Assembly (NCBI GenBank): GCA_964537875.1
Contig: CAZIDN010000007.1
Coordinates: 6,720 to 70,719 of the forward strand
Direction: 5' to 3'
Source: an uncultured Eubacteriales bacterium
GTDB lineage: Bacteria > Acidobacteriota > Aminicenantia > Aminicenantales > UBA4085
DNA: 64,000 nt
Shown: piece after piece, positions 1 to 16,745 of the stretch
Numbering within the stretch: position 1 is the stretch's first letter
How the letters are laid out: each line of letters opens with the position of its first letter
The notes under the pieces: generated by a model
The model's input: only the letters and a program-made list of their open reading frames with translations
Databases searched by the model: none
Told to the model about the DNA's origin: nothing
Made by a program: the position numbers and the translations under genes

Positions 1-1
1 C

Positions 2-1558
2 GGTTCTGCATCCGGCCTGACCGCCGGATCCGTTCGGTTCGCCGTTTCCATCGACCCCGCGATCAGGACCGAACCTACATCGGGACGTATCCTGTTTCTC
101 CTCTCGCGGACCGAAAAGTTCAATCTGGGCATGAACGGGTCGCCCGTCTTTGGGAAGAACGTCGATGACCTAAGGCCGGGAGACCGGGTTTATATCGACG
201 AGACCGCCTTCGGCTATCCTATCCGGAGCCTGCGCAACATTCCCGAAGGCGAATATTTTGTTCAAGCCTGGCTTAACATCTACACGACCTTCAAGCGCTC
301 TGACGGCAAAATCATCAAGCTCCACATGGACCAGGGAGAAGGCCAGAACTGGCGCCGATCGCCGGGGAATCTTTTCAGCGACCCGGTTAAGGTAAAAATC
401 GCTGCGGCGGGTGAAGCCGAGCCTGCTCCCATCGTCCTAAACCGAGTCGTGCCGCCTATCCCCCCTTATCAAGACACGATGCATCTCAAACACATCAAAA
501 TCCAGAGCAAGCTTCTGACGGAATTCTGGGGACGGCCGATGGAAATCGGGGCGAACATCCTGCTGCCCAAGGGCTACGACGAGCATCCGGATGTCCGCTA
601 CCCGGTTCATTACATCCAAGGCCATTTTCCGCGCGGCAACGTCGGGCGCTTCAGCGAGGATCCCAACAACGCCGCCAACAAGATTTGGAACTCGGATAAT
701 ATGCCCCGCTTCATCCAGGTGACGATCGAGCACGCCTGTCCGTACTATGACGACTCCTACGGGGTGAATTCCGAGAACGCCGGTCCCTACGGCGATGCGA
801 TCATCACCGAGCTCATCCCTATCATTGAGAAGACCTTCCGGGCCATCGGCCAGCCTTGGGCCCGGGTGCTTTCGGGAGGCTCGACCGGAGGCTGGATTTC
901 CCTGGCCATGCAGGTCTTCTATCCCGACTTTTTCGGCGGAACCTGGACTTTCTGTCCCGACCCGGTGGATTTCCGAAAATACCAGATCGTTAATCTCTAT
1001 AATGACAAGAACGCTTACTATATCGAATATGAATGGACGCGCGTGCCGCGCGGCGGCGAGCGGGATACAAGCGGCAACATCATATACACTCAAGAACAGG
1101 AGAACCTTTACGAGGAAGCGATCGGCGACCGGTTCCGGTCTGGAGGACAATGGGCTATATGGAACGCGGTCTTTGCGCCCGTCGCTGAGGACGGCTACCC
1201 CAAGCCGCTCTGGGACCCGGTCACGGGAAAGATCGACAAGGATGCCGTAGCTTGGGCCGGCGAGCGCTACGATTTGCGCCGCTACTTGGAGAAGAACTGG
1301 GCGGCGGCCGGAACGAAGCTCGCTGGCAAAATCCACGTCTATTGCGGGCGCATGGATAACTTCTACCTCAACGAGGCCTGTTACCTGCTCCAAGAGTTTC
1401 TGGAGAGCGCGACGAATCCGCCCTATGGAGGCGAGTTCAAGTACGGCGACCGCGGCGGACACGGCTGGAACCCGTTCAGGGGCGACGCGCTGCAGCGAAC
1501 CATGGCCGAGCATGTCCTGCAAAATTCGCCGGATAAAAAGAAGGATTGGATCTATTGA
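2..1558 (+). CDS. Putative esterase / alpha-beta hydrolase family protein (enterochelin-esterase-like). The N-terminus lies outside the window, because the frame is open from position 2.
   Basis: No stop codon occurs in frame from nt 2 up to the listed ATG at 131, so the gene is 5'-truncated by the window. A GGSTGGW-type motif lies in an alpha/beta-hydrolase-like context. The family assignment is by recollection only. Confidence 0.4.
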   Translation, partial: GSASGLTAGSVRFAVSIDPAIRTEPTSGRILFLLSRTEKFNLGMNGSPVFGKNVDDLRPGDRVYIDETAFGYPIRSLRNIPEGEYFVQAWLNIYTTFKRSDGKIIKLHMDQGEGQNWRRSPGNLFSDPVKVKIAAAGEAEPAPIVLNRVVPPIPPYQDTMHLKHIKIQSKLLTEFWGRPMEIGANILLPKGYDEHPDVRYPVHYIQGHFPRGNVGRFSEDPNNAANKIWNSDNMPRFIQVTIEHACPYYDDSYGVNSENAGPYGDAIITELIPIIEKTFRAIGQPWARVLSGGSTGGWISLAMQVFYPDFFGGTWTFCPDPVDFRKYQIVNLYNDKNAYYIEYEWTRVPRGGERDTSGNIIYTQEQENLYEEAIGDRFRSGGQWAIWNAVFAPVAEDGYPKPLWDPVTGKIDKDAVAWAGERYDLRRYLEKNWAAAGTKLAGKIHVYCGRMDNFYLNEACYLLQEFLESATNPPYGGEFKYGDRGGHGWNPFRGDALQRTMAEHVLQNSPDKKKDWIY

Positions 1559-1565
1559 GAGGTAT

Positions 1566-1634
1566 GGGGTCAAACCTACTCGTTACGCTAAATTCTCTCG
1601 GGGAAGATGCGTAACGAGTAGGTTTGACCCCGGA
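1566..1634. repeat. Family-A palindromic element, copy A1. GGGGTCAAACCTACTCGTTACGC / loop TAAATTCTCTCGGGGAAGAT / GCGTAACGAGTAGGTTTGACCCCGGA. A partial tail TATTGACCCGGGATT follows.
   Basis: A perfect 23-bp stem is seen directly in the sequence. It sits immediately 3' of the stop of the first CDS. Three related copies are at 13529, 14064 and 16609. Confidence 0.85.
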
Positions 1635-1663
1635 TATTGACCCGGGATTCTTTCGGGAGCAAC

Positions 1664-2371
1664 ATGACGGAAAAAAAAGACAGGAAAAAAAGAGATAAGA
1701 GCGTCGTCCGCGAATATTTTGAGCTCATCGCCGAGACGGCCGTCTTCGTCTTTTTCGTGATGACGTTCGTCGTCCAGGCTTTCCAGATTCCCACGGGCTC
1801 GATGGAGCCGACGCTCCTCGTCGGCGACTTCCTCCTGGTCAACAAGCTCATCTATGCCAACACGATCTCGCCCATCGAAGAGAAAATTCTCTCCCGGAGA
1901 AATATCAAACGGAAAGACATCATTGTCTTCAAATGGCCGAATGACCTGACCAAGGATTTCGTCAAACGCGCCATCGGGCTGCCGGGAGAAAAACTGGAGA
2001 TCAAAAACAAGCAGGTTTATATCAACGACAGGCCGTTGGAGGAAAAATACAAGGTCCACTCCGACAGCGATATTAGGTCCGCGAATGATGCTGCCAATTA
2101 CAGTAATGACCCCCGCGACAATTTCGGCCCGGTCATCGTCCCCGAAGGGCATATTTTTGCCATGGGCGACAATCGCGACAACAGCGATGACAGTCGCTTC
2201 TGGGGCTTTTTGCCGCTCACCAACGTGAAAGGACGGCCGTGGTTCATCTACTTCTCTTACCAGGCGGAGCGGGACGCATACCAGAAGACCGGCTTCAGGG
2301 ACAGGTTGAATAAGCTGGTCAATTTCCTGCCGAAAGCAAGGTGGCGGCGGATCCTGAAAGTGATTCGCTGA
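1664..2371 (+). CDS. lepB: Signal peptidase I (S26 family)
   Basis: An N-terminal TM segment is present. The motifs GSMEPTL (catalytic Ser box), KRAIGLPGE (Lys box) and GDNRDNSDDSRFWGF (box E) are present. The ATG at 1664 is preferred over the tracked TTG at 1637 because a GGGAG Shine-Dalgarno lies 5 nt upstream. Confidence 0.85.
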   Translation: MTEKKDRKKRDKSVVREYFELIAETAVFVFFVMTFVVQAFQIPTGSMEPTLLVGDFLLVNKLIYANTISPIEEKILSRRNIKRKDIIVFKWPNDLTKDFVKRAIGLPGEKLEIKNKQVYINDRPLEEKYKVHSDSDIRSANDAANYSNDPRDNFGPVIVPEGHIFAMGDNRDNSDDSRFWGFLPLTNVKGRPWFIYFSYQAERDAYQKTGFRDRLNKLVNFLPKARWRRILKVIR

Positions 2372-2444
2372 TCGGCAAAATGAGATTTTTTTCTTTTAAT
2401 TTATTCCCAGGCTACGAAAAAAGGCCGGTTTTCGAAAACCCAAA

Positions 2445-2473
2445 TTGACAGGGCCTGCCGTATTCCTTATAAT
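2445..2473 (+). promoter_or_regulatory. Consensus sigma70-type promoter, TTGACA-17nt-TATAAT. A 14-bp perfect palindrome GGTTTTCGAAAACC (2427-2440) abuts the -35 and is a possible operator.
   Basis: Both hexamers match consensus exactly with a 17-nt spacer. The element lies 32 nt upstream of a small ORF that has a strong Shine-Dalgarno. Confidence 0.45.
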
Positions 2474-2504
2474 TCCTTCATGATTATGCAGGGGAGAAAA
2501 TAAT

Positions 2505-2687
2505 ATGTACGTTCTCACCGTCCACTTTAATGATGATACTTCGATTTCCGAGGATTTCGATATGCTGAGCCAGGCAGAAATCAGAGCCCACAAATTTTTG
2601 CAATCCGGATATAAAGGGAAGCAGGGAGAGAAGACGATCTTTTATCCTGTCCATACGATCAAAAAACTCGAGATCGCAACGAAATAG
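2505..2687 (+). CDS. Orphan small protein (60 aa), function unknown
   Basis: A GGGGAG Shine-Dalgarno sits 8 nt before the ATG. A perfect consensus promoter is upstream and a hairpin downstream. The ORF lies in an AT-rich (~40% GC) patch of a ~60% GC genome. No recognisable motifs were found. Confidence 0.4.
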   Translation: MYVLTVHFNDDTSISEDFDMLSQAEIRAHKFLQSGYKGKQGEKTIFYPVHTIKKLEIATK

Positions 2688-2713
2688 GAGACAGGGACAT
2701 CTGGGGGGACATA

Positions 2714-2735
2714 GCACTTTGTCCCCTGCTTTGAA
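2714..2735 (+). terminator. Hairpin GGGGACA-tagcactt-TGTCCCC followed by TGCTTTG. Weak intrinsic-terminator candidate for the small ORF.
   Basis: A 7-bp GC-rich stem with a U-containing tail lies right after the stop at 2687. Confidence 0.25.
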
Positions 2736-2982
2736 AAAGATATTTATTGGAAAATATTTCCTCTTTGCCGCGGCCGGAGCCCTGAACTCGGTAATTTCGC
2801 TTTTTTATTATTTTCGCATCGGCAGGGCTATGTTCATGGAAGAGAGTCTTCCGGATGTCCGCATCGAGCCTTCGGTCCCTGTCATTGCGGTCCTGGCGTT
2901 TTCGGCCCTGGCCCTCCTCGTTTTCGGTATTTTTCCTTCTCTCCTGACATCCTTGGCGGCCGCCTCGACCCTTCTCAATTAG
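2719..2982 (+). pseudogene. NuoN / antiporter-subunit C-terminal remnant (~85 aa, ...SVISLFYYFRIGRAMFMEE...), probable gene fragment
   Basis: The sequence matches the conserved C-terminal helix of NuoN/MnhD-type subunits (aVisLyYYlRvv...). There is no N-terminal 400+ aa. Its ATG lies inside the preceding hairpin and no Shine-Dalgarno is present. Confidence 0.35.
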
Positions 2983-3019
2983 CCGCAAAAATAACTTCGT
3001 TTTTCCCTCCAAGAAAGCC

Positions 3020-3049
3020 TTGACATTCCCCTTCGGAAAAAAATATACT
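3020..3049 (+). promoter_or_regulatory. Candidate promoter of the hydrogenase operon, TTGACA-18nt-TATACT
   Basis: The -35 is consensus and the -10 is near-consensus, ending about 12 nt before the ATG at 3061. The leader is therefore very short. Confidence 0.35.
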
Positions 3050-3060
3050 TTGCCTTCAAA

Positions 3061-4485
3061 ATGAACATTGAGACAATAACACTTCTCACTGTTTTTGTCC
3101 CAATCATTGGCGCCCTCACCATCCCGCTGGCCAGCCTCATCTCTAAGTCCGCCCGGTCGGCCTGGTCCGTCCTCCTCGGCGGCGTCACCGCGCTCCTCCC
3201 CTTGCTCCTCATCCCGACGGCCATCAGCGGCGGCGAAACCATTATCCGGAAGGAGTTCATCCTGGGGCTGGACTTCATCCTCATCATCGACCCTCTGTCC
3301 ATTTTCATGTCCATCGTCTCCTCGTTCGTCGGCTTCCTGATCATCGTCTATTCCCTCGGCTACATCCATCACGAGGAAAACCAGAATGAATACTACCTGA
3401 TGGTGGTCCTCTTCATCGGGGCCATGATGGGGCTGGTGTATTCGGGAAACCTGATCTTCATCTATCTTTTCTGGGAGATCATCGCCATCTGCTGCTGGCG
3501 CCTGATCGGATTTTACCGGCTGAAGGATCATATCCTCAAGGCCGACAAGGCCTTCCTGGTCACGTTCTTCGGGGCCGTGGTCATGCTCCTGGGATTCATC
3601 CAGATCTACGGAAGCACGAATTCATTCGACTTGACGGCAATGCGCGGAACTATGATTCCCGGGACCGCCGTCCTGATGATCCTCTTCGGCATGTTCTCCA
3701 AATCGGCGACGGTGCCCCTTCACACCTGGCTACCAGACGCCGGCGTCGCACCGACGACGGTGACCGCTTTGCTCCACGCGGCGGTGCTCGTCAAAATCGG
3801 CGTCTATGCCTACGCCCGACTTTTCTTGTATACGTTCAAGCTCCCCGGTGACTGGCCGCAGGTCATCCCCATCCTGGCCGTCATCTCGAGCTTGATCGCG
3901 GCCGCTGCGGCGACGGTTGAAAACGACTTCAAGCGCATCCTGGCCTACTCGACGGTAAGCCAGATCGGCTATATCTTTCTTGGCTTCAGTGTGGCCAACC
4001 AATCCGGGGTCTCGGGCTCGTTGCTTTTCATCCTGATGCACGGCCTGGCCAAGGCCGGACTCTTCCTCTGCGCCGGGATCGTCATCCACGCTACGCACAA
4101 ACGGGACATCCGAGAAATGGGCGGGCTGATCAAGACCATGCCCATCACCGCCGTCGCCTTCCTGCTCTGCTCTTTCTCGGTCATCGGCATTCCTCCCTTC
4201 GGAGGCTTCTTCTCCAAGTTCCTGGTCATCATGGGAACCGTCCAGGCCGGACAGGTCTGGGTTGCGGCCGTCGCCCTCTTCACGGCCGTCCTGACCATGT
4301 TTTACCTGCTCAAGGTTTTCAGCCAGGTCTTCCTGGGAGAAGTGAAAATCGCCGCGCCGGAAAAAACGAGATCCATGATTTTTGTCGTCGCCCTCCTGGC
4401 CATCTTATCCCTGGTCGCGGGCATCTTCGTCTCTTATCCCGCCAAAATGGCCGAGATCGCGACGACCCATATCATTGGCGGCTAA
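3061..4485 (+). CDS. Group 4 [NiFe]-hydrogenase membrane subunit, NuoL/M/N-type proton-pumping antiporter-like (HyfB/MnhD-like), copy 1
   Basis: Polytopic membrane protein. It carries the hallmark motifs PLHTWLPDA...TTVTALLHAA...KIGVYAYARL and AYSTVSQIGYIFLG. Confidence 0.8.
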   Translation: MNIETITLLTVFVPIIGALTIPLASLISKSARSAWSVLLGGVTALLPLLLIPTAISGGETIIRKEFILGLDFILIIDPLSIFMSIVSSFVGFLIIVYSLGYIHHEENQNEYYLMVVLFIGAMMGLVYSGNLIFIYLFWEIIAICCWRLIGFYRLKDHILKADKAFLVTFFGAVVMLLGFIQIYGSTNSFDLTAMRGTMIPGTAVLMILFGMFSKSATVPLHTWLPDAGVAPTTVTALLHAAVLVKIGVYAYARLFLYTFKLPGDWPQVIPILAVISSLIAAAAATVENDFKRILAYSTVSQIGYIFLGFSVANQSGVSGSLLFILMHGLAKAGLFLCAGIVIHATHKRDIREMGGLIKTMPITAVAFLLCSFSVIGIPPFGGFFSKFLVIMGTVQAGQVWVAAVALFTAVLTMFYLLKVFSQVFLGEVKIAAPEKTRSMIFVVALLAILSLVAGIFVSYPAKMAEIATTHIIGG

Positions 4486-4486
4486 A

Positions 4487-6352
4487 ATGACACCGAACAT
4501 GCTTCTATGGCCGATTCTCCTGCCGGCCCTCATTGCCATCATCTGCCTGATCATTCCCAAGCGCATCAAATATCTCAGAGAAGCCATAGCCCTGATAGCC
4601 TCCCTCGTCGTCCTCTACATGGGATTTAAGCTCTTCTCCGTCAAAAACCTGGAATTCCGCCTCCCCTGGATGGGACAGGGCATTAATTTCGAGCTTCGGC
4701 TGTACCATTTTTCGAGCTTCATCCTGCTCGGCCTGGCCGGATTTCTCTTCCTCATCACCCTATATTCCATCGTCAAGATGAAGGACCACCCACGCCGGAA
4801 TGAATATTATGCCTATGTCTTCCTGTCCGCCGCGCTGGCCAACGGGGCCGTCTTAGCCGACAACTTCGTCCCGCTGGTCTTCTTCTGGGAAGGCCTGCTT
4901 TTGACGCTCTACGGCCTGATCTCGCTCGGCCGGAAAGAATCCAACCGGACCGCGGTCAAGGCGTTCATCATCAGCGGGTTCTGCGATTTTTGCATGATCC
5001 TCGGGATCGGCATCCTCTGGACGATCACCGGCACGCTGACCATGTCCCAGATCTCGATCAAACCCGAAGGCCCGGCCGCGGCCGCGTTCATCCTGATGAT
5101 GATCGGCGCCATCGGAAAAGCGGGGGCCATGCCGTTCCACACCTGGATCCCCGATGCCGCCATCGATGCTCCCGTGACCTTCATGGCCTTCATGCCGGCC
5201 TCCTTTGAAAAGCTGCTGGGCATCTACCTTCTGGCCCGGATCACGCTCGACCTTTTCAAATTGGAAAAGGGCAGCGCTCTGTCCCTCACTCTGATGATCA
5301 TCGGCGCCGCGACCATCGTCTTCGCGGTCATGATGGCCCTCATCCAGAAGGATTTCAAGCGGCTGCTCTCCTATCACGCCGTGAGCCAGGTCGGATACAT
5401 GATCCTGGGCATCGGAACGGCCATTCCCATCGGCATTGCCGGCGGGATCTTCCACATGATTAACCACGCCATGTATAAATGCGGGCTCTTCTTGAGCGCA
5501 GGCTCGGTCGAGCACCGGACCGGAACAACGGAGCTGAAAAAACTGGGCGGCCTGAGCAGAGAGATGCCCTGGACGGCCTTCGGTTTTTCAGTTTGCGCTC
5601 TGGCCATCTCGGGAGTCTGGCCCCTCAACGGCTTTGTCTCCAAGGAAATGGTGTTCCACGGCGCCCTGGAAAGCGGCTATACCATCTTCGCCATCGCCGC
5701 TTGGGTCGGCGCGATCTTCACTTTCGCCTCGTTCCTCAAGGCCGGCCATTCCGTGTTCTTCGGGCCAAGAACGAAGGACGTTCCCGCCGTCAAAGAGAGC
5801 CAAGGCGCCATCGTCGTCCCGATCCTGATCCTGGCGATCCTCTGCATCACCTTCGGCGTGTTCAACAAGCTGCCCTTGACCAACTTCATCCAGCCCATTC
5901 TTGAAGGCCACTTCGAGGCCGGCGAAAGCATCGACTTCACGGCCCATGCCCTGAGCATCTTCAACCCCGTGGCCGGCATCTCGATCCTCTGCCTGCTGAT
6001 CGCCCTGGCCATCCATTTCTACGGCTGGAAACGCGGCGGCAAGAAAGCCTACATGGCCTCCGAGCCCGTTCACAAGTTCCCCGGGATCAAACAGGTTTAT
6101 GACCTGGCCGAAGCCCGCGTCTTCGACCTCTACGAACAGGGCATCATCTTCCTGAGAGGGCTGTCGGTCGTCCTGTTCAAGGGAATCGACCGGCCCATCG
6201 ATTTCTTCTACGAGAAAATCGTCACAGCCGTGGGCAGGGCCTTCACCGGCGTTTTGAGTAAAGCCCATACCGGCCATTACGCCAATTACCTGGCCTGGTG
6301 CCTGGCCGGGCTGCTCGTCATTGCCACCCTGATCAATTTGCTGATAAAATAG
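4487..6352 (+). CDS. Group 4 [NiFe]-hydrogenase membrane subunit, NuoL-type antiporter-like (long form, ~620 aa), copy 2
   Basis: Motifs MPFHTWIPDA and SYHAVSQVGYMILG are present. The ATG at 4487 follows the stop of the previous gene by 1 nt. The tracked start at 4382 overlaps the upstream gene and is unlikely. Confidence 0.8.
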   Translation: MTPNMLLWPILLPALIAIICLIIPKRIKYLREAIALIASLVVLYMGFKLFSVKNLEFRLPWMGQGINFELRLYHFSSFILLGLAGFLFLITLYSIVKMKDHPRRNEYYAYVFLSAALANGAVLADNFVPLVFFWEGLLLTLYGLISLGRKESNRTAVKAFIISGFCDFCMILGIGILWTITGTLTMSQISIKPEGPAAAAFILMMIGAIGKAGAMPFHTWIPDAAIDAPVTFMAFMPASFEKLLGIYLLARITLDLFKLEKGSALSLTLMIIGAATIVFAVMMALIQKDFKRLLSYHAVSQVGYMILGIGTAIPIGIAGGIFHMINHAMYKCGLFLSAGSVEHRTGTTELKKLGGLSREMPWTAFGFSVCALAISGVWPLNGFVSKEMVFHGALESGYTIFAIAAWVGAIFTFASFLKAGHSVFFGPRTKDVPAVKESQGAIVVPILILAILCITFGVFNKLPLTNFIQPILEGHFEAGESIDFTAHALSIFNPVAGISILCLLIALAIHFYGWKRGGKKAYMASEPVHKFPGIKQVYDLAEARVFDLYEQGIIFLRGLSVVLFKGIDRPIDFFYEKIVTAVGRAFTGVLSKAHTGHYANYLAWCLAGLLVIATLINLLIK

Positions 6353-6383
6353 TTAATTTGAAGAAAGATATAGAGGAGGACCT

Positions 6384-7865
6384 TTGATTTTCCTGTTCAT
6401 CGGCTTGCCCATCCTGGCCGCCGCCGTCCTGCCCCTGATAGGGAAAATATCCAAAAAATTTCTGCCCGATCTCGTCTCCAACGCCGTTTTCCTCTTCCTC
6501 CTCGTCCTTGCCGCAACCTCCGGCCGCCAGATGATCAGCCAGGGTCCCATCCTCAAGCAGCTCAACTGGCTGGGCGAACCGGTCAGCATCCAGGTCGCGG
6601 TCGACGGCTTCAGCCTGTTCATGCTGATGGTCATTTCGCTCCTGACCCTGTGCGTCGGCCTGTTTTCCATCAACTATATGGACCATTACGGCTCCAAGTC
6701 CATCTACTACGCCCTCCTTCTGATGATGATGGCGGGGATGAACGGGCTCGTCCTCGTGACCGACCTCTTCAGCGTTTATCTTTTCCTGGAAGTCGCCGCG
6801 ATCGCTTCCTACTCCCTTGTCGCCTACGGCCTGGAGCACGACGAGCTCGAGGCCTCCTTTAAATATTTGATGCTCTCGGTCATCGCCTCGGCGGGCATTC
6901 TGCTCAGCATCGCCGTCATCTTCGGAATGACGGGGAACCTCGGCTTTGCCGCCGTGGCCGAAAGCCTGCGGAGCCTGGACGCCAAATTCGTGGTCGGTTT
7001 TTGCGCCGCCCTCTTTATCATGGGCTTCGGCTTGAAGGCGGCCCTCGTCCCCTTTCATGCCTGGCTTCCGGACGCCCACCCTTCCGCGCCGGCCCCGATC
7101 TCGGCCATCCTGTCCGGCCTGCTCATCAAAGTTTCCGGCGTCTATGCTCTGGCCAGAATATTTTTTAACGTCTTCGGCCTGACCCCCGCCCTTTCCCAGA
7201 TCTTAATGTATCTCGGCGCCATTTCCATCGTGGTCGCCGCCTTTCTCGCCCTCGGCCAGAAAGACATGAAGCGCATGCTCGCCTACTCTTCGATCAGCCA
7301 GGTGGGATATGTCGTCCTGGGCCTGGGGATCGGCACGCCGCTGGGAATCGCCGGCGGGCTCTTCCATCTCTTCAATCACGCCGTGGCCAAAGGGCTCCTC
7401 TTCTTGAATTCAGGCTCGGTCCAGCAGTCGACCGGAACGCGAAACCTTGATGAAATGGGAGGATTGGCCAGGCGGATGCCCGTGACCGCGGCCACCAACC
7501 TCGTCGGCTCGCTCTCGATCTCGGGCGTACCGCCCCTCGGCGGATTCTGGAGCAAGCTGATCATCATCATGGCCCTGGTCCAGGCGGACGAGTGGTTCCT
7601 GGCCGTCGTCGCCGTCCTGGCCAGCGTGCTCACCCTCTGGTACTATCTCCTCATCCAGCGCAAGGCCTTCTTCGGCAAGTTGAATGAGCGCTGGAAGGAT
7701 GTCAAGGAGGCGCCGTTCTGGATGACGGCCTCGACCGTCATCCTGGCGCTCCTCGTCATCGGCATCGGCATCTTTTTCTCGACCGTCATATCATCCTGGA
7801 TCCAGCCCGCTTCGGACGTGCTGGCCAAGGGAGTCAATCTCTTGTTCGCGTCATGGGGATTTTAG
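6384..7865 (+). CDS. Group 4 [NiFe]-hydrogenase membrane subunit, NuoM/N-type antiporter-like (HyfD/F-like), copy 3
   Basis: Motifs VPFHAWLPDAHPSAPAPISAILSGLLIKVSGVYALARI and AYSSISQVGYVVLG are present. It uses a TTG start preceded by a GAGGAGGA Shine-Dalgarno. Confidence 0.8.
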   Translation: MIFLFIGLPILAAAVLPLIGKISKKFLPDLVSNAVFLFLLVLAATSGRQMISQGPILKQLNWLGEPVSIQVAVDGFSLFMLMVISLLTLCVGLFSINYMDHYGSKSIYYALLLMMMAGMNGLVLVTDLFSVYLFLEVAAIASYSLVAYGLEHDELEASFKYLMLSVIASAGILLSIAVIFGMTGNLGFAAVAESLRSLDAKFVVGFCAALFIMGFGLKAALVPFHAWLPDAHPSAPAPISAILSGLLIKVSGVYALARIFFNVFGLTPALSQILMYLGAISIVVAAFLALGQKDMKRMLAYSSISQVGYVVLGLGIGTPLGIAGGLFHLFNHAVAKGLLFLNSGSVQQSTGTRNLDEMGGLARRMPVTAATNLVGSLSISGVPPLGGFWSKLIIIMALVQADEWFLAVVAVLASVLTLWYYLLIQRKAFFGKLNERWKDVKEAPFWMTASTVILALLVIGIGIFFSTVISSWIQPASDVLAKGVNLLFASWGF

Positions 7866-7868
7866 AAG

Positions 7869-8351
7869 ATGATTCTGCAAATCGTTCTTTTAAGCGGATT
7901 GCTTCTCTTCTCCATCCTGGCCATCCTGTCCAAGGACCTTCTTAAATCGGCCATCAGCCTGGCCATCGCCAGCCTCCTTCTCGGAATCATTTTTTTCCGA
8001 ATGAGCGCTCCCTACGCCGGCGTCTTCGAGATTTCGGTCGTGGCCGGCTTGATCACGGTCCTCTTCATCCTGACCATCGCCCTAACCAAGGCGGAAGGCG
8101 ACGTCCGCGAGGCCAAGCTGGCCAAGCTCGTGTTCCCCCTGTTTTTCGTGATCTTCATCCTCATCGACGTCTTCGTCATGAAGAGCCTCCTCCAGAAGAT
8201 ACCGGCGCTCCCCGAGACCGCGGAGCAAGGCACCTTCGGGGATGTCCTGTGGAAGCAGAGGACGTTCGACCTCATCGGCCAGCTGGCGGTCATACTGGCG
8301 GGAGTCTTCTCCGTCCTGGCCCTGTTCCGAAAGAGGGACAAAAATGAATAA
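7869..8351 (+). CDS. Small hydrophobic hydrogenase/Mrp-type subunit (MnhB-like)
   Basis: A 160-aa protein with four predicted TM helices. Its position in the operon matches MnhB/MbhF-type subunits. Confidence 0.45.
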   Translation: MILQIVLLSGLLLFSILAILSKDLLKSAISLAIASLLLGIIFFRMSAPYAGVFEISVVAGLITVLFILTIALTKAEGDVREAKLAKLVFPLFFVIFILIDVFVMKSLLQKIPALPETAEQGTFGDVLWKQRTFDLIGQLAVILAGVFSVLALFRKRDKNE

Positions 8352-8652
8352 CACCTGGTTTCTATACATGGGCTTCGCGGCCGGCTTGATTTTTGTCGGC
8401 GTCTACTGTCTGTTGGCCATGAAAAACGTGATCAAGCTCTTCATCGGCATCGAAGTCATCAGCAAGGGCGTCAGCCTGGCCCTGCTGGCCAGCGGATTCG
8501 TCAGGAAGAACACGCTCCTGGCCCAGAGCCTGGTCATCACCTTCATCGTGGTCGAAGTCAGCCTCGTCGCCACCGCCTTGGCCATCATCATCAACATCTA
8601 CAAGCACACCAAGAGCCTGGACATCCGGAAGCTGACGAAATTGAAAGGGTAA
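8344..8652 (+). CDS. NuoK/MnhC-like small membrane subunit
   Basis: About 100 aa with 3 TM helices and a KNVIKLFIGIEVISKGVSLALL pattern typical of the NuoK/MnhC family. The ATG at 8344 overlaps the upstream stop by 8 nt. Confidence 0.5.
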   Translation: MNNTWFLYMGFAAGLIFVGVYCLLAMKNVIKLFIGIEVISKGVSLALLASGFVRKNTLLAQSLVITFIVVEVSLVATALAIIINIYKHTKSLDIRKLTKLKG

Positions 8653-8655
8653 ATT

Positions 8656-8997
8656 ATGAAAGGGATCGATATTCTTATCTCGCCGCCCGTGGCCTTCGTC
8701 CTCTTCCTCATCATCGCTTTTCTGCTCACCCTGCTCGGCAAGCGGATGGCGCCTCGGCTCACCAAAACCGGCGGAAAGCTCACAACCTACGCCTGCGGAG
8801 AGGACATCCCGGGCGTAAAGGTCCAGTTCGGCTACCGGCTTTTCTTTTTCGTGGCCTTGTTCTTCACCATCATGCACGTCGCCACCCTGATGATCGCGAC
8901 GGTGCCGTCCGGCAAGATCGTCTGGTTCGCCGTCCTGTACCTGGCCGTGATCTTCCTGTCCATCATGGCCCTCGTGACAAGGAGCGGAAATGCTTAA
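8656..8997 (+). CDS. NuoA-like membrane subunit
   Basis: A 113-aa protein with 3 TM helices and a YACGEDIP motif, which matches the NuoA YECG signature. Confidence 0.5.
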   Translation: MKGIDILISPPVAFVLFLIIAFLLTLLGKRMAPRLTKTGGKLTTYACGEDIPGVKVQFGYRLFFFVALFFTIMHVATLMIATVPSGKIVWFAVLYLAVIFLSIMALVTRSGNA

Positions 8998-9409
8998 CCG
9001 ACTTGTTCGCTGGTCCCGGATCAAGTCGCCGTGGATCCTGCATCTCAATTCGGGCGCCTGCAACGCCTGCGATATCGAGATTGTCGCGGCCCTGACCCCC
9101 CGCTTCGATGTCGAGCGGTTCGGCGTTCTTCTCAAAGCGACGCCTCGGCATGCCGATGTCATCATCGGCACGGGGCCGGTGACCCGTCAGATCAAGGACC
9201 GGATCATCCGCATCTACGATCAGACGCCCGACCCGAAATTCGTCATCGCCGTCGGCGCCTGCGCCATGTCGGGATGCGTCTACCGCGGCGCCTATAACAT
9301 CATGGGCGGACTGGACCAGGTCATTCCGGTGAATGTCTATGTCCCCGGCTGCCCAGCTCGTCCCGATGCCATCCTGGACGGCGTGATCAAGCTCCTGGGC
9401 AAACTCTAG
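8990..9409 (+). CDS. [NiFe]-hydrogenase small subunit, NuoB-like (EchC/MbhJ/HycG family)
   Basis: Four Cys ligands for a proximal [4Fe-4S] cluster are present (GACNAC..., GACAMSGC, VPGCPARPD), with the conserved NuoB fold motifs. Confidence 0.8.
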   Translation: MLNRLVRWSRIKSPWILHLNSGACNACDIEIVAALTPRFDVERFGVLLKATPRHADVIIGTGPVTRQIKDRIIRIYDQTPDPKFVIAVGACAMSGCVYRGAYNIMGGLDQVIPVNVYVPGCPARPDAILDGVIKLLGKL

Positions 9410-9422
9410 ATTTGAGGAGTCT

Positions 9423-9896
9423 ATGAACGACCTAGAGATTATCGAAAAAACGAAAAGCCTCCTCGGCGATAAGATCCTCGAGATTGCCAATCCGGCCGTG
9501 AGGCGCATTTTCATAAAAGTCGAACCCCAGAATCTGGTGCCCGTCGTCGGCGGCCTCAAGAAGAACCTCAACATCACCTATCTGGCGACCGTAAGCGGCG
9601 TGGATTTGGGAGAGTACTTTGAGATTCTCTATCATTTCGGCCACAACAACGGCAGCCTGACCGTCCGGACCCAGATCCCCAAGGCCAATCCCCACATCGA
9701 AAGCATCTGCTCCGTCATCCCCGGAGCGATCCTCTATGAACGGGAACTCCAGGATATGTTCGGCATCGTCGTAGACCATCTCCCCGACCCGAGACCGCTG
9801 GTCCTCCCGGATGGATGGCCGGCCGGCAACTTCCCCCTCCGGAAGGAGTGGAAATTCGAGCGTCCCGAAGAGATCATCCCCGGAGGCAAGAAATGA
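9423..9896 (+). CDS. NuoC-like (30 kDa) subunit of group 4 hydrogenase (EchD/MbhK-like)
   Basis: Size and position between the NuoB- and NuoD-like genes fit. The family fit of ERELQDMFGI is weak. Confidence 0.6.
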   Translation: MNDLEIIEKTKSLLGDKILEIANPAVRRIFIKVEPQNLVPVVGGLKKNLNITYLATVSGVDLGEYFEILYHFGHNNGSLTVRTQIPKANPHIESICSVIPGAILYERELQDMFGIVVDHLPDPRPLVLPDGWPAGNFPLRKEWKFERPEEIIPGGKK

Positions 9897-11095
9897 AGTT
9901 CACTATTCCCATCGGCCCCCAGCACCCCGCTCTAAAAGAGCCGATCAGCCTGCGGATGACCGTCGAAGGGGAAGTCATCCAGGACGCCGACATCCGCCTC
10001 GGCTATAACCACCGCGGCTTGGAGAAGCTGGCCGAAGAAAGGACATGGATTCAGAATATCTACCTGACCGAGCGCATTTGCGGCATCTGTTCCCACTCCC
10101 ACGCCACCTGCTATGTCCAGGGCGTGGAGAAGCTCATGGAGCTCAATCCTCCCAAGCGCGGCTTGTATATCCGGACGCTCGTCGCGGAGCTCGAGCGCAT
10201 TCACAGCCATCTGCTCTGGTTGGGCGTGGCGGGCCACGAGGCTGGCTTCGACTCGTTCTTCATGTACACCTGGCGGGATCGCGAAGTCGTGATGGACCTC
10301 CTGGAAATGATCTCGGGGAACCGCGTTCACTATGCCATTAATGCTATCGGCGGCGTGCGCCGGGACATCGACGAGATGCAAAGAAAGAAGATCCTGGACG
10401 GATTGGAGATCTTAAAGACGAGAACCGAATACTACTTCAAAATAGGCGTCAATGAGCCGACTTTCGTCGGCCGCCTGGCCGGAGTCGGGTATCTGTCCAA
10501 GGAAAAAGCCGTCGACCTGTGCGCCGTCGGCCCGATGGCCCGGGCTTCCGACCTGCCCCAGGACGTGCGCAAAGACGATCCCTATGCCGTTTACGATGAG
10601 GTCCCCTTTGATGTCTGCACCGCGGACACCTGCGATGTCCTGGGAAGGACTGTGGTCCGGATCAAGGAGCTGTTCGAATCCTACAAAATCTGCGAATTCC
10701 TGATGAAAAACCTCCCTCCCGGAGACATCGCCGTCAAGGCTCCGACGCGGGCCAAGCCGAACGAGGTCGTCAGCCGCTACGAAGCGCCCCGGGGAGAGAA
10801 TACTCATTACATCAAGTCCAACGGAACAAACAAGCCGGAGCGGCTGAAAGTCCGGGCGCCGACCCTGGCCAACTATCCGGCCACGGTGGAAATGCTCAAA
10901 AACGGGTTCATCGCCGATATTCCCCTGATTTTTGCCGCCATCGATCCCTGTATCTGCTGCGCCGAGCGGACCGTGAACATCGTCAACGCCCAAACCGGCG
11001 AAGAAAAAATCCTGCGCTTCGACGAGCTGAGGGCCCTGGCCGAAGAACGATTTAAAAAAATGCCTCCAAAAAGGAATGCGGTGTGGCCGTTCTGA
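9893..11095 (+). CDS. Group 4 [NiFe]-hydrogenase large (catalytic) subunit, NuoD-like
   Basis: The L1 motif RICGICSHSH and the L2 motif DPCICCAER are both present. These are the four Ni-Fe-ligating cysteines, which complex I NuoD has lost. A ~40-aa tail follows the L2 motif, the usual substrate of a HycI-type endopeptidase. The start is the ATG at 9893, overlapping the upstream stop. Confidence 0.85.
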   Translation: MKFTIPIGPQHPALKEPISLRMTVEGEVIQDADIRLGYNHRGLEKLAEERTWIQNIYLTERICGICSHSHATCYVQGVEKLMELNPPKRGLYIRTLVAELERIHSHLLWLGVAGHEAGFDSFFMYTWRDREVVMDLLEMISGNRVHYAINAIGGVRRDIDEMQRKKILDGLEILKTRTEYYFKIGVNEPTFVGRLAGVGYLSKEKAVDLCAVGPMARASDLPQDVRKDDPYAVYDEVPFDVCTADTCDVLGRTVVRIKELFESYKICEFLMKNLPPGDIAVKAPTRAKPNEVVSRYEAPRGENTHYIKSNGTNKPERLKVRAPTLANYPATVEMLKNGFIADIPLIFAAIDPCICCAERTVNIVNAQTGEEKILRFDELRALAEERFKKMPPKRNAVWPF

Positions 11096-12054
11096 AGGAT
11101 CTGCTTTACCTGATCGTCTATCCGGGGATCATTTTTCTCTTCGTCTATTCCACATTCTGCGAATGGTTTGACCGGAAAGTCTATGCCCGCCTGCAGAACC
11201 GAATGGGCCCGACACACACGGGCCGCTGGGGCCTCCTTCAGCCGGTGGCCGATTTTTTCAAGCTCATGGCCAAGGAAGACATCGTCCCCGATAAAGCCGA
11301 CAAGACGCTGTTCAACCTCCTTCCGGTCTTCGGCCTGGCCATCGTAGCCACGGCCGGGCTTCTTCTTCCCCTCTGGCACTATAATCCGGCAAAAGCGGGT
11401 TTCAATTCGTTCCCCGGAGACGTGATCGTTGTTCTCTATCTCTTGAGCCTGCCGACCTTGATCTTCTTCCTGGCCGGCTGGTCGTCGACGAATCTCTTTT
11501 CGACGATCGGCGGCACGCGCGTGCTGACCATGCTCTTCGGCTATGAAGTTCCCCTTTTCATGGCCGTCCTCAGCCCGGCCATCCTGGCCAATTCCTGGCG
11601 GCTCGTCGAGATCGCCGCGTTCTACCAGAAAAAACCGTGGCTCATTCTGCCCAACCTGCTGGGTTTGGTCATCGCCATCATTTGCGTCCAGGCCAAGCTG
11701 GAGCGGACGCCGTTTGATATTCCCCATGCCGAAACGGAGATCGTCGGGGGAACTTTCACGGAATACTCGGGCAAGAAGCTGGCCTTTTTCAGGCTGATGA
11801 CCGACATCGAAATGGTCGTCTCGAGCGGGCTTGTCGCCGCGGTCTTCCTGGGAGGCTTTCCAGGCGGGCTGTGGCTCGGCCTGCTGAATTTTGTCGTCAA
11901 GACGCTCTTTGTGATTTTCTTCCTGTCGCTCATCCGGGCTCTGACGTCGAGGATCAGGGTCGATCAGGTCGTCTCCTTCGCCTGGAAATATCTGGCTCCC
12001 CTGGCCGTCCTCCAGCTTCTCATCGTCATCTTAATCAAGGGATTGCTGTTATGA
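11083..12054 (+). CDS. NuoH-like membrane subunit (HycD/EchB/MbhM family)
   Basis: The motif ...RKVYARLQNRMGPTHTGRWGLLQPVADFFKL... is the NuoH/HycD signature. About 8 TM helices are predicted. It uses a GTG start. Confidence 0.8.
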   Translation: MAVLKDLLYLIVYPGIIFLFVYSTFCEWFDRKVYARLQNRMGPTHTGRWGLLQPVADFFKLMAKEDIVPDKADKTLFNLLPVFGLAIVATAGLLLPLWHYNPAKAGFNSFPGDVIVVLYLLSLPTLIFFLAGWSSTNLFSTIGGTRVLTMLFGYEVPLFMAVLSPAILANSWRLVEIAAFYQKKPWLILPNLLGLVIAIICVQAKLERTPFDIPHAETEIVGGTFTEYSGKKLAFFRLMTDIEMVVSSGLVAAVFLGGFPGGLWLGLLNFVVKTLFVIFFLSLIRALTSRIRVDQVVSFAWKYLAPLAVLQLLIVILIKGLLL

Positions 12055-12494
12055 AATTAGCGGTTTTTCTTCCGGAACTTCTTCGGAGTCTCTTCAAGAA
12101 GCCGAACACGGTGGATTATCCGTTCAAAAAACTTGAAGTTCCGAAGGATTTCCGCGGAACCCCCTTTCTCCATCCGGACCTCTGCATCGCCTGCCGGGCC
12201 TGCGAGCGGGACTGTCCGGCCGAGGCGATCGAGATCACTTCGGTGAGCGACGCCGAGAAGAAATTCAAGATGGTCATCCACAACGACCGCTGCATCCACT
12301 GCGCCCAATGCTTGGACTCCTGCCCCGTCGCGCCCGTGAAGGCCATGGATATGGACCACCTGTTCGAAATCGCCGACTTCGACCGCCATGACCTCAAGAA
12401 GGATTGGGTGTTCGTCAGGGCCGTCCTCAAGAAAGAGCCCAAGCCCGCGCCGCCTAACCCCGAACCCTCCCCGAAAACCGAGCCCGCCCAATAA
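12052..12494 (+). CDS. NuoI-like 2x[4Fe-4S] ferredoxin subunit (HycF/EchF/MbhN family)
   Basis: Two CxxCxxCxxxCP motifs are present (CIACRACERDCP and CIHCAQCLDSCP). The ATG at 12052 is preferred over the upstream-overlapping tracked start. Confidence 0.8.
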
Positions 12495-12630
12495 CAATAC
12501 GGGGACAGGTACTTCCGACCTTTTTTTCCAACTCATTGTTTAACAACGAACGGGAATTCATATCAGGACTCTGAGGTTTTTTGAAATAGTTTATTTATCT
12601 TTGGAAGGAAGGATTTCCATATATGTAATT

Positions 12631-12755
12631 TGGATGAGGTGCCGGAATCGCCCCCAGTCCCCTGGGGAACCAGTCCCGTCGGTTCCCCCCGTCGAATAAC
12701 GACGGGGCCCCCCTCCGCTATGGGGACTTTAGGGGCGATTCCGGCACCTCATCCA
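12631..12755. repeat. Family-B structured repeat, copy B1 (core in reverse orientation relative to B2-B4). The outer 23-bp stem is TGGATGAGGTGCCGGAATCGCCC / GGGCGATTCCGGCACCTCATCCA.
   Basis: The core (reverse complement) is CCCCATAGCGGAGGGGGGCCCCGTCG-ttatt-CGACGGGGGGAACCGACGGGACTGGTTCCCCAGGGG. It lies between the last hydrogenase structural gene and the maturation-protease gene. Confidence 0.85.
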
Positions 12756-12859
12756 AACCAAATAAACGGATATGCTTACTTTTTGGGATGCGTCCTGTTT
12801 TTTTACAACAAGAACGCTTAAAATATAGAAGTGAGTTTAGGCTCACGGTATTCGGTTTT

Positions 12860-13390
12860 ATGAAAAAAGATATGTCCTCTCCTCCTGCCGCCTGGAAAGG
12901 CCGGCTCAAGAAGGAAATCCTTTCCGCCCGAAGGATCGTCATCCTGGCCGCGGGAAATCTCACCAAAGGAGATGATGCCGCGGGCATTCAATGCGCCCAA
13001 AAGCTAAAAAAATTGATGGGCGGGAAAGCCCGCTCATGCTTGAAGATTTTGCTCGGCCATGAAACCCCGGAGAATGCCACAGGCGAGATTCGGAAGTTCC
13101 GGCCTGACCTTGTCCTGATCCTCGATGCCGCCCAGGGGGGACATAATCCCGGAACTGTTTTTATCGTTGAGAAAAACCAGATCGAAGATGAAAGCGTCTC
13201 AACACACACAATTTCGTTGGCGTTGCTTGTCGTTTATCTGGAAGAAACAATCGGCTGCAAAGTGATGGTTCTGGGGATTCAGCCCCTCAGCCTAGGCTTA
13301 GGCGAAAAAGTATCGGCCCGGATAATAAAATCTGCCGGGAGCCTCGCTGCTTTTCTTGCCCACGTTTTCACGGATACGAGCCTTAATTAG
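12860..13390 (+). CDS. Hydrogenase maturation endopeptidase (HycI/HyaD family)
   Basis: The motifs ILAAGNLTKGDDAAG, LVLILDAAQGGHNPG and TVFIVE match the metal-binding Asp/His pattern of hydrogenase C-terminal proteases. The ATG at 12860 (MKKDMS) is chosen because the tracked start at 12788 runs into the repeat. Confidence 0.7.
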   Translation: MKKDMSSPPAAWKGRLKKEILSARRIVILAAGNLTKGDDAAGIQCAQKLKKLMGGKARSCLKILLGHETPENATGEIRKFRPDLVLILDAAQGGHNPGTVFIVEKNQIEDESVSTHTISLALLVVYLEETIGCKVMVLGIQPLSLGLGEKVSARIIKSAGSLAAFLAHVFTDTSLN

Positions 13391-13528
13391 AACATTCCCG
13401 CCATATGTACCGCGCAAACCTTCGGTTTTCAATGGTCTTAGACTATGAATTCGCCCGTAGCAGGATCAACCCCGCTCATATGTTCCGGATCGGCCCGACG
13501 ATGACGCCGGCTGCCGCAGAGCATTGAC

Positions 13529-13613
13529 GGGGTCAAAGCTACTTTTTACGCATTATTCTCTCGGGGGGAAAGTGCGTAAAAAGTAGCTTTGACCCCGGAC
13601 TATTGACCCCGGA
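13529..13613. repeat. Family-A palindromic element, copy A3 (GGGGTCAAAGCTACTTTTTACGC / loop / GCGTAAAAAGTAGCTTTGACCCCGGA), plus a tandem partial repeat CTATTGACCCCGGATTTT
   Basis: Same architecture as A1/A2. The inner stem differs at 3 positions and each change is compensated. Confidence 0.85.
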
Positions 13614-13626: not shown

Positions 13627-13911
13627 TTAAGCCCTGATCTCAGCCCTGGCGTAGGCGTATTCCTTGAAAATCTTATCCCGAGACTCATGCTTTGAGCATT
13701 TCATCAAAAGAAGAAAGAGGTCTTCTTTGAGCCTTCTCCAAGCTTCTTCCTTGGTTTTTCCAACAGACCAAAAATCATAGATCGGGCAGTAGCAGAAATA
13801 GTATTTGGTCTGGTTTTTGATCTGTATGGGGGTTGATGGCGTCGCTGTTGCTGAAGTCTTCATAGTCCACCTCATCCAATCATCTTTGGTCGTCTGTTCC
13901 ATATCTCGCAA
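13627..13911 (-). CDS. UPF0150/HicB-like small protein (possible orphan antitoxin-like RNase-H-fold protein). Start codon uncertain; internal ATGs at 13902 and 13863 are alternatives.
   Basis: The segment IQIKNQTKYYFCYCPIYDFWSVGKTKEEAWRRLKEDL fits the UPF0150/HicB N-domain pattern (Y.a.vPe..G....G.T.EEA..n..eal). It lies in a 42% GC islet. No HicA-like partner ORF of at least 60 aa is present. Confidence 0.35.
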   Translation of the reverse strand: MRDMEQTTKDDWMRWTMKTSATATPSTPIQIKNQTKYYFCYCPIYDFWSVGKTKEEAWRRLKEDLFLLLMKCSKHESRDKIFKEYAYARAEIRA

Positions 13912-14063
13912 CTTTTCTTCCTTCCAGGATCATTTTTTCTTTTCCATATATATATACGAAGGCAAGGCCTGTTTTGTTGCCTCGTCTTTGCTAAAAATGA
14001 AAAAAATATGGTGAAGAGGGATGGAAGAGGGAAAGCCCCGTTTGCCGGTAAAATCCCTAGACG

Positions 14064-14132
14064 GGGTCAAACCTACTCGTTACGCATAATTCTCTTGGGG
14101 AGCGTGCGTAACGAGTAGGTTTGACCCCGGAT
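14064..14132. repeat. Family-A palindromic element, copy A2 (nearly identical to A1)
   Basis: GGGGTCAAACCTACTCGTTACGC-ATAATTCTCTTGGGGAGCGT-GCGTAACGAGTAGGTTTGACCCCGGA. Confidence 0.85.
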
Positions 14133-16592: not shown

Positions 16593-16608
16593 TTGGCGGG
16601 ATCTTGGC

Positions 16609-16687
16609 GGGGTCAAGCCTCAACATTCAACATAATCTCTTTGGACTCACTCTTTATTCTTCTTGTTGAATGTTGAGGTTTGACCCC
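16609..16687. repeat. Family-A element, divergent copy A4. Conserved ends GGGGTCAA/TTGACCCC; unrelated 16-bp inner stem GCCTCAACATTCAACA/TGTTGAATGTTGAGGT; 31-nt loop containing TAATCTCTTTGG.
   Basis: Seen directly in the sequence. It lies immediately 3' of the GH130 gene and 5' of the Fur-family promoter. Confidence 0.7.
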
Positions 16688-16696
16688 GTTTTTCTC

Positions 16697-16745
16697 TTGA
16701 CAAGGACCCATAGTTTGTATAGAATCCAATTTGTAATGATTACAA
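16697..16745 (+). promoter_or_regulatory. Sigma70-type promoter TTGACA(16697-16702)-17nt-TAGAAT(16720-16725), plus the perfect 7-1-7 palindrome TTGTAATGATTACAA (16731-16745) that resembles a PerR/Fur box
   Basis: The palindrome spans the predicted +1 and the ATG (16736) of the Fur-family gene. It matches the PerR-box consensus TTATAATnATTATAA at 13 of 15 positions. Confidence 0.45.

Follow-up and report, generated by a model that had tools for sequence, protein, structure and literature searches.

Does the gene cluster at 3020–13390 of a 64,000-nt stretch of DNA from a Candidatus Aminicenantes sediment bacterium (Acidobacteriota) encode a hydrogenase or a form of respiratory complex I? Complex I is held to descend from energy-converting hydrogenases, and enzymes joining a working Ni-Fe site to a full complex I arm are the most informative intermediates between the two. 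Below, the whole stretch is referred to as the window, all coordinates are window positions unless another locus is named, and the loci fetched from relatives carry L-numbers. We consider it likely that the cluster encodes an 11-subunit energy-converting group 4 [NiFe] hydrogenase together with its processing protease, that this enzyme is ancestral in the class Aminicenantia, and that the palindrome B1, located ahead of the protease gene hycI, is not a part of the system.

Catalytic module and membrane arm

The large (NuoD-like) subunit contains the motifs RICGICSHSH (L1) and DPCICCAER (L2), and its four cysteines align to those of MbhL of P. furiosus and HycE of E. coli. The patterns published for group 4 large subunits are C[GS][ILV]C[AGNS]xxH for L1 and [DE][PL]Cx[AGST]Cx[DE][RL] for L2 (PMC7886697). 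The fifth position of L2 is a Cys instead of A, G, S or T, a small departure from the pattern. A 41-residue tail following the Arg of L2 aligns with the cleaved tail of HycE. Both Ni-Fe cysteine pairs are present in all 79 of the 79 related large subunits, with tails of 38–51 residues. In the PDB, the best matches are MbhL (2e-81, 277 bits) and HycE (2e-80, 274 bits), followed at a distance by Nqo4 (209.5 bits) and the group 3 enzyme FrhA (53 bits). Ranked by these matches, the large subunit would group with group 4 rather than with groups 1–3 or NuoD.

The small subunit provides four cysteines for one proximal [4Fe-4S] cluster, and the motifs GxCNxC, GxCxxxG and PGCP are found in 73 of 76 homologues. 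The window protein reads GACNAC, a CxxC arrangement, and has no tandem CC. The tandem CC in NuoB is a mark of complex I. The NuoI-like subunit bears two CxxCxxCxxxCP motifs, present in 67 of 68 homologues. The NCBIfam models for NuoD, NuoH and NuoL all score below their own cut-offs. The four Ni-Fe cysteines, the HycE-like tail, the adjoining hycI gene and the CxxC small subunit are all in line with the preliminary description of this locus, which had read the enzyme as a group 4-type energy-converting [NiFe] hydrogenase and not complex I, citing both CxxC motifs and a C-terminal tail for HycI.

Alternatively, the locus might encode a complex-I-like or Ehr-type oxidoreductase of 11 subunits instead of a hydrogenase, with quinone or some other compound as the acceptor. 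Its subunit list equals that of 11-subunit complex I, and the NCBIfam NuoD model, with 335 bits, comes near its cut-off of 360. However, the Ni-Fe ligands are lost in complex I and the Ehr complexes, as are the features of the tail, protease and small subunit in NuoD/FpoD and Ehr (PMC7886697, PMC6349859). Since the ligands are retained here, we rule out complex I and Ehr. With the cysteines present in every related sequence, a cleavable tail, a dedicated HycI and a CxxC small subunit, a non-hydrogenase is hardly credible.

The hydrogenase module is attached to a complex-I-like membrane arm that proves fuller than the preliminary description had claimed. It comprises NuoA-, NuoH-, NuoJ- and NuoK-like subunits and three antiporter-like subunits, one of them with a NuoL-type lateral helix. 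This subunit 2 matches the NCBIfam NuoL model over 3–610 of its 615 positions. In its AlphaFold model (35 homologues in the alignment, mean predicted local distance difference test, pLDDT, of 72), helices at 534–542 and 548–590 are followed by a final transmembrane (TM) helix at 597–620. Foldseek aligns the model over its full length to MrpA, NuoL/ND5/NdhF and MbsH'. The best NCBIfam match of subunit 3 is the MrpD-like subfamily, and MbhH matches the antiporter-like subunits. All three contain the TM5 Glu, TM7 Lys and TM12 Lys motifs. Their pairwise identity is just 31–35% (31–32% for subunit 1 against the other two), indicating old paralogues rather than recent duplicates.

The gene following the antiporters had been labelled MnhB-like; its position stands, while the label does not, as the protein has the length of NuoJ (160 residues) and its N-terminal half matches MbhD. 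PDB searches return MbhD (6cfw_D, 5e-10) and MbsD (6.5e-7), with NuoJ at E ~0.07–0.16. Judging from its length, the protein may be a fusion of MbhD and MbhE. In the NuoK-like subunit we read two membrane glutamates, in the motifs GIEV and VVEV. The profile of the NuoA-like subunit (17 homologues) matches ND3/NuoA/NdhC alone in the PDB (E 0.0065–2.4), with all three helices covered. MbhI gives no match to this profile in the PDB even at E <10, while the NuoA-like gene occupies the operon position of mbhI. The invariant YACGE(D/N) loop, YACGED in the window, aligns with the YECGF(D/E)-type loop of ND3. The predicted subunit list (A, B, C, D, H, I, J, K and three proteins of the L/M/N type) thus equals that of the complex I Q- and P-modules, to which a Ni-Fe site is added.

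Several points weigh against this picture of the enzyme. The lateral-helix region of the subunit 2 model has a pLDDT of only ~50–60. The NuoA-like assignment is based on weak scores (best E 0.0065), and its TM2 (residues 69–76) contains an invariant FFT(I/M)MHVA with a His, where ND3/NuoA has FxxFDxE with two acidic residues. It is possible that this His reflects a difference in the coupling channel. No homologues of hypA, hypB or hypF are found in the window, which bears on the capacity for maturation. The free energy available between ferredoxin and H2 is small, corresponding by a textbook estimate to ~1 ion per H2, and leaves three pumping modules unexplained. Finally, the 4g-type enzymes, including the archaeal Hfo described below, have no biochemical characterization (PMC7886697, PMC5037454).

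Electron donor and direction of the reaction

The preliminary description noted no partner enzyme nearby and considered the electron donor unclear. We searched for partner genes in the operon and among the open reading frames (ORFs) checked between 1 and ~37 kb of the window, and found no formate dehydrogenase (fdhF), carbon monoxide dehydrogenase (cooS/cooF), ferredoxin-oxidoreductase or hyfA/hycB. The first statement is therefore correct, while the second is true just formally. HydDB subgroup 4g, a heterogeneous and uncharacterized assembly that is presumed to be ferredoxin-coupled, contains Hfo, an Fpo-like [NiFe] hydrogenase that has 11 subunits, occurs in Bathyarchaeia and belongs to subgroup 4g-6 (Loh, Herve & Brune 2021, PMC7886697; PMC5037454). 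A placement of the window enzyme in 4g would be in keeping with its relatives, which include Bathyarchaeota enzymes of the sort assigned to 4g, and with the lack of the Mrp E/F/G genes that define 4d. Where enzymes of this type come without partner genes, the presumption is that they accept electrons from reduced ferredoxin itself (PMC5037454, PMC7886697), and by analogy reduced ferredoxin is the likely donor here. In such a scheme a partner oxidoreductase gene would not be required.

Homology suggests the whole mechanism, including donor, ion and direction. Reduced ferredoxin from fermentation would deliver electrons to the two [4Fe-4S] clusters of the NuoI-like subunit, the presumed site of ferredoxin entry. 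The next stop would be the one cluster carried by the NuoB-like small subunit, and from it the electrons would reach Ni-Fe in the NuoD-like subunit and reduce protons to H2. The free energy would be transmitted via the NuoH/NuoA/NuoJ/NuoK interface to the three antiporter-like subunits, which would translocate H+ or Na+ and would be tied together by the lateral helix of the NuoL-like subunit. HycI would remove the 41-residue tail of the large subunit once the metal has been inserted. The reaction is probably reversible.

The same enzyme could operate in reverse, with the membrane potential driving H2-dependent reduction of ferredoxin and several channels allowing a small ion-motive force to push the reaction uphill. 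Such a direction is known for Eha/Ech in methanogens, and three intact ion-translocating modules exceed the needs of the weakly exergonic forward reaction. Loh et al. propose the reverse direction for the 11-subunit Hfo (PMC7886697), and the nearest relatives include a cluster from Bathyarchaeota that has the gene order of Hfo. On the other hand, studies of metagenome-assembled genomes (MAGs) describe Aminicenantes as H2-evolving fermenters (PMC10766756), and no CO2-fixation or other ferredoxin-consuming pathway adjoins the operon among the ORFs checked. While sequence cannot reveal direction, we regard the reverse one as rather unlikely and favor H2 evolution from reduced ferredoxin.

A hydrogenlyase coupled to formate or CO (Hyf/FHL-2-like or Coo-like, FHL being formate hydrogenlyase), with its dehydrogenase partner encoded elsewhere in the genome, would account for the three antiporter-like subunits, as in Hyf, for HycE being as good a PDB match as MbhL, and for the HycI-type protease, which goes with FHL enzymes. 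However, fdhF, a hyfA/hycB-type polyferredoxin gene and cooS/cooF are absent from the operon and from the ORFs checked, and also from the neighborhoods of the more distant loci L081, L083 and L084. In contrast to Hyf, the operon encodes NuoC and NuoD separately and possesses NuoA- and NuoJ-like subunits (PMC3144371). Such a hydrogenlyase is improbable, and direct use of ferredoxin remains our preferred reading.

Downstream of the operon, at 16670–18161, genes for a Fur-family regulator, desulfoferrodoxin and rubrerythrin follow one another, an oxidative-stress set typical of strict anaerobes that fits a fermentative host.

The operon, its distribution and the B1 palindrome

Database homologues of the large subunit with 72–100% identity are labelled Candidatus Aminicenantes, Aminicenantales, Saccharicenans or Acidobacteriota. 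The 11 genes are collinear in 80 species-representative genomes wherever the contig reaches far enough, and the operon is consequently the rule for the lineage rather than an exception. We read it as an ancestral trait that Aminicenantia have kept by vertical descent, and as a hallmark of the class. The remark that such an enzyme is notable in an Acidobacteria-type genome has to be dropped in view of these species-level relatives, and group 4 hydrogenases have already been described in Aminicenantes MAGs (PMC10766756). Second nuo or hydrogenase copies were not found in the window.

Outside the class, the nearest relatives of the large subunit, with 47–53% identity, belong to Methanoregula, Anaerolineales, Pelolinea, Desulfaltia and Bathyarchaeota. 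Three of the outside neighborhoods (L081, L083 and L084) have the order J-K-antiporters-small protein-B-C-D-H-I-HycI or a close variant. The Bathyarchaeota locus L206, with a large subunit 49% identical, has the order A-B-CD-H-I-J-K-L-M-N, with NuoC and NuoD fused. Directly after its last antiporter gene, at 17370–18896 of L206, it encodes an FrhB/FdhB-like protein that additionally has Fer4 and CBS domains, possibly an input module in that locus. The Aminicenantes operon contains nothing comparable.

The 11 structural genes lie on the + strand and are packed tightly in 3061–12494, with spacers ranging from an 8-nt overlap to 31 nt (Table 1). Three antiporter-like genes are followed by NuoJ/MbhD-, NuoK-, NuoA-, NuoB-, NuoC-, NuoD-, NuoH- and NuoI-like genes. 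ORFs and Pfam matches agree with the positions and order given in the preliminary description, with a label and a start amended. The promoter is identical in L002, the closest relative (large subunit 94% identical), and most of the 45 relatives compared have its motif ahead of their first gene. This conserved, near-consensus promoter indicates that the operon is a self-contained transcription unit starting from the first antiporter gene. As the -10 box ends 11 nt before the first ATG, the operon mRNA is predicted to be nearly leaderless. In the subclade of this bacterium, which includes L002–L005, L015–L029 and others, the -10 box ends 8–11 nt from the start codon and there is no Shine-Dalgarno sequence. 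In other subclades the promoter is located ~35 nt upstream, and a AAGGAAGG motif precedes the ATG.

Table 1 Features of the hydrogenase locus in window coordinates.
Feature	Position	Strand	Length	Details
Sigma-70-type promoter, TTGACA-18 nt-TATACT	3020..3049	+		11/12 consensus matches
Antiporter-like subunit 1 (NuoL/M/N / MrpD family)	3061..4485	+	474 aa	Pfam Proton_antipo_M 4.8e-74, Proton_antipo_N
Antiporter-like subunit 2 (NuoL/MrpA/MbsH'-type)	4487..6352	+	621 aa	Proton_antipo_M 3e-56
Antiporter-like subunit 3 (MrpD/NuoM/N-like)	6384..7865	+	493 aa	TTG start; Proton_antipo_M 1.6e-74
NuoJ-like subunit	7869..8351	+	160 aa	Pfam Oxidored_q3 40.4 bits, MbhD 34.5 bits (both above cut-off)
NuoK/MrpC-like subunit	8344..8652	+	102 aa	Pfam Oxidored_q2 3.2e-18
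NuoA/ND3-like subunit	8656..8997	+	113 aa	3 transmembrane helices; Pfam Oxidored_q4 22.0 bits (cut-off 23.3)
Hydrogenase small subunit (NuoB-like)	8990..9409	+	139 aa	Pfam Oxidored_q6 2e-29
NuoC-like subunit	9423..9896	+	157 aa	Unfused; Pfam Complex1_30kDa 3.5e-28
[NiFe] hydrogenase large subunit (NuoD-like)	9893..11095	+	400 aa	Pfam Complex1_49kDa, NiFeSe_Hases
NuoH-like membrane anchor	11083..12054	+	323 aa	GTG start; Pfam NADHdh 7e-88
NuoI-like 2x[4Fe-4S] subunit	12051..12494	+	147 aa	Fer4 family matches
B1, palindromic MITE-like element	12605..12781	core on -	177 nt
HycI-type maturation endopeptidase	12860..13390	+	176 aa	Length from conserved start; Pfam HycI (PF01750) 1.3e-10

The HycI match sits within a longest ORF of 12788–13390. 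Since the N-termini of homologues begin at the equivalent of MKKDM, the predicted start is most likely at 12860 (MKKDM...). A start at 12788 was rejected: the extension is open in L002 too, but distant homologues begin at the MKKDM equivalent, 14–30 nt past nuoI. The hycI gene is found <450 nt downstream of nuoI in 45 of 71 relatives and farther away (0.5–5 kb) in 5. In the remaining 21, a large subclade including L022, L026, L042, L044, L045 and others, it was not found in the fetched locus, up to ~10 kb downstream. Its linkage to the structural genes is therefore unstable. A weak terminator-like hairpin at 12500–12517 was not taken as a terminator; of its 5 pairs two are G-T, and the L002 counterpart is even weaker.

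B1 lies between the nuoI-like and hycI-like genes, as originally reported. It contains a perfect inverted repeat of ~26 bp (12629/12632–12654 and 12732–12754/12757) inside a longer imperfect palindrome, and is flanked by TTTGG direct repeats at 12600–12604 and 12782–12786. In L002, the closest complete genome, the site is empty. Without 12605–12786, the spacer of the window measures 196 nt and is collinear with the 201 nt of L002, with 146 of 195 positions identical. Further copies of this family B are present in the window at 20131–20305, 27836–27973 and 34248–34373. The four copies share a nearly invariant, G+C-rich core of ~70 nt, while their arms differ and yet stay complementary, with 17 of 53 pairs changed on both sides. 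All four are intergenic, two of them between divergent genes. Among the matches listed, the exact 27-nt core occurs in >120 metagenome contigs (L085–L204), many times within ~200 nt of the contig end. Several metagenome copies resemble B1 and B3 in their outer arm ends, for example AAACGGAGATGCTT. In the 80 Aminicenantes hydrogenase loci the core was detected in L007 only, ~7.5 kb downstream of nuoI and outside the nuoI-hycI spacer. No transposase was identified for the B family.

The empty collinear site in L002, the TTTGG duplication and the many dispersed copies point to a recent insertion. Presence or absence at a collinear site, a short direct repeat, dispersed copies and a lack of coding capacity are the properties of a miniature inverted-repeat transposable element (MITE). 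B1 is thus a recently inserted MITE-like mobile palindrome that is no part of the hydrogenase system.

The preliminary description had instead proposed B1 as a candidate processing or attenuation site, a selected RNA element that divides the structural from the hycI transcript. The + strand RNA is indeed predicted to fold into a structure of -124 kcal/mol that includes the perfect stem of ~26 bp (z = -6.8), and long duplexes of bacterial palindromic repeats such as Correia and ERIC are cut by RNases. However, B1 belongs to a dispersed family and is specific to this lineage. Neither the closest relative nor any other spacer read directly carries it, no spacer in the 80 loci contains a copy of the core, and the spacer is usually only ~15–250 nt long in relatives. 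The G-U pairs in the family-B arms are near-symmetric between the strands (341 vs 301), and thus provide no RNA-strand signal. The B1 core is antisense to the operon, as its orientation is opposite to that of the other three window copies, and the overall fold energy favors the core-sense strand. At the gathering score Rfam matches nothing anywhere in the window, and relaxing the threshold to E up to 5 for the B1 region yields chance-level hits only. We therefore consider a regulatory role very improbable and retain the mobile insertion as the explanation. If nuoI and hycI are co-transcribed, it is possible that B1 is cleaved or pauses transcription as a by-product, not as a designed boundary. 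The case of B1 cautions against reading regulation into a striking hairpin within an operon, which may be a mobile element of recent arrival.

Correia/NEMIS and ERIC are palindromic MITE-like repeats. Like them, B1, at ~180 nt, is intergenic, folds its long imperfect inverted arms into one hairpin, is flanked by a short direct repeat, varies in presence between close relatives and is dispersed in many copies. Unlike them, B1 has the nearly invariant core with co-varying arms. The B family, with this core, paired arms changing on both sides and >120 copies listed, may represent an undescribed kind of mobile element.

A second family of perfect 23–25 bp hairpins (family A, CGGGGTCAAA...TTTGACCCCG) is present at 1566–1631, 13528–13597, 14062–14129 and 16608–16688. 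Two of the copies bracket a minus-strand ORF at 13627–13911, which has no convincing Pfam match.

Directly upstream of the promoter, an ORF of 87 codons (2719–2982, +) matches the last ~70 residues of NuoN/ND2/NdhB. The PDB matches are located at ~409–479 of 488 positions (E 0.0035), and Pfam gave nothing. It is a putative truncated 3' end of nuoN, and since this fragment has no counterpart in the flanks of the 80 related loci, we infer a rearrangement or deletion upstream of the operon. Positions 1–3008 of the window and 1–3120 of L002 have in common only the last ~52 nt before the first gene, i.e. the promoter. In the window, an esterase, a signal peptidase, a 60-codon ORF and the nuoN fragment precede the operon. 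In L002, the translations correspond to a GltD/NfnB-like oxidoreductase, a 224-aa ORF, a 146-aa ORF that may be a kinase-like ATPase, and a FeFe-hydrogenase-like, sensor-type Fe-S protein.

Comparison with known systems

The mbh operon has the core order D/E-G-...-I-J-K-L-M-N, the same as that of the window, and Mbh uses ferredoxin as its donor without a partner enzyme. In the P. furiosus enzyme (group 4d, PDB 6CFW), MbhL is the best structure match for the large subunit and MbhD for the N-terminal half of the NuoJ-like protein. The membrane arm differs. The window enzyme has neither MbhA-C nor MbhF, which constitute the Mrp E/F/G-type Na+ module, and contains three antiporter-like subunits where Mbh has one. 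ND3/NuoA is what the gene at the place of mbhI matches by sequence, and a long NuoL-type lateral helix is predicted. A Mrp-linked Mbh (4d) was rejected, as just 11 structural genes lie between the promoter and hycI and none of them is MrpE/F/G-like.

Hydrogenase-4 (Hyf or FHL-2, group 4a), known from E. coli and Pectobacterium, also contains three antiporter-like subunits, a NuoK-like subunit and a HycI-family protease, and in the PDB HycE matches the large subunit as well as MbhL does. In Hyf, NuoC and NuoD are fused, and the polyferredoxin HyfA and a formate dehydrogenase partner are added, none of which was found here. By sequence searches Hyf lacks NuoA and NuoJ (PMC3144371). The earlier term Hyf-like is therefore not appropriate: NuoC (9423–9896) and NuoD (9893–11095) are encoded by separate genes, and no HyfA or FdhF was found in the operon or among the ORFs checked between 1 and ~37 kb.

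The 11-subunit complex I and Fpo-like enzymes (NDH-1 without NuoEFG) have an identical subunit list, including the NuoL-type lateral helix and the subunit with the ND3-type loop. In these enzymes, which reduce quinone or methanophenazine, the Ni-Fe cysteines have disappeared (PMC7886697, PMC3144371), whereas the window enzyme keeps the cysteines, the tail and the protease. In public annotations, homologues from metagenomes are often named NADH-quinone oxidoreductase subunit D (large subunit) or subunit L (subunit 2), labels that would wrongly imply respiratory complex I in probable H2-evolving fermenters. An older view that NuoA and NuoJ occur in no hydrogenase (PMC3144371) no longer holds after the MBH structure (PMC8165549) and Hfo. 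Asgard archaea are also reported to contain transitional complexes (bioRxiv 10.1101/2024.07.04.601786).

The closest similarity is to Hfo. Both have the same list of 11 subunits with the L1 and L2 motifs kept, neither has NuoEFG/FpoF or the Mrp E/F/G Na+ module, and the large subunit of the Bathyarchaeota cluster arranged like Hfo is one of the closest to that of the window. Hfo is archaeal, whereas the window enzyme is bacterial. The window order is antiporters-J-K-A-B-C-D-H-I (X-L-X-J-K-A-B-C-D-H-I), as opposed to the A-B-C-D-H-I-J-K-L-M-N of fpo/nuo. NuoC and NuoD are separate in the window and fused in the Bathyarchaeota locus, and hycI is adjacent in the window.

The conservation of an 11-subunit enzyme across a whole, environmentally abundant bacterial class provides natural variants for structure prediction and the analysis of coupling residues, and the operon offers candidate genes for heterologous expression. 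It is possible, though less likely than not, that the Aminicenantia enzyme is the first bacterial counterpart of Hfo, combining Ni-Fe with the whole seven-subunit proton-pumping arm of complex I in an operon that is still mbh-like. This arm would include a subunit whose ND3-type loop can be recognized in the sequence, a subunit as long as NuoJ, and a NuoL-type lateral helix that spans further antiporter modules. If true, the full complex I arm would have been assembled on a hydrogenase before the loss of Ni-Fe, in both Bacteria and Archaea, and an abundant lineage would become a tractable system for studying why a low-energy ferredoxin/H2 couple carries three or four ion channels. Compared with the known systems, the Aminicenantes enzyme is a bacterial member of a kind already described, with the subunit list of Hfo, a gene order like that of Mbh, and separate C and D subunits.

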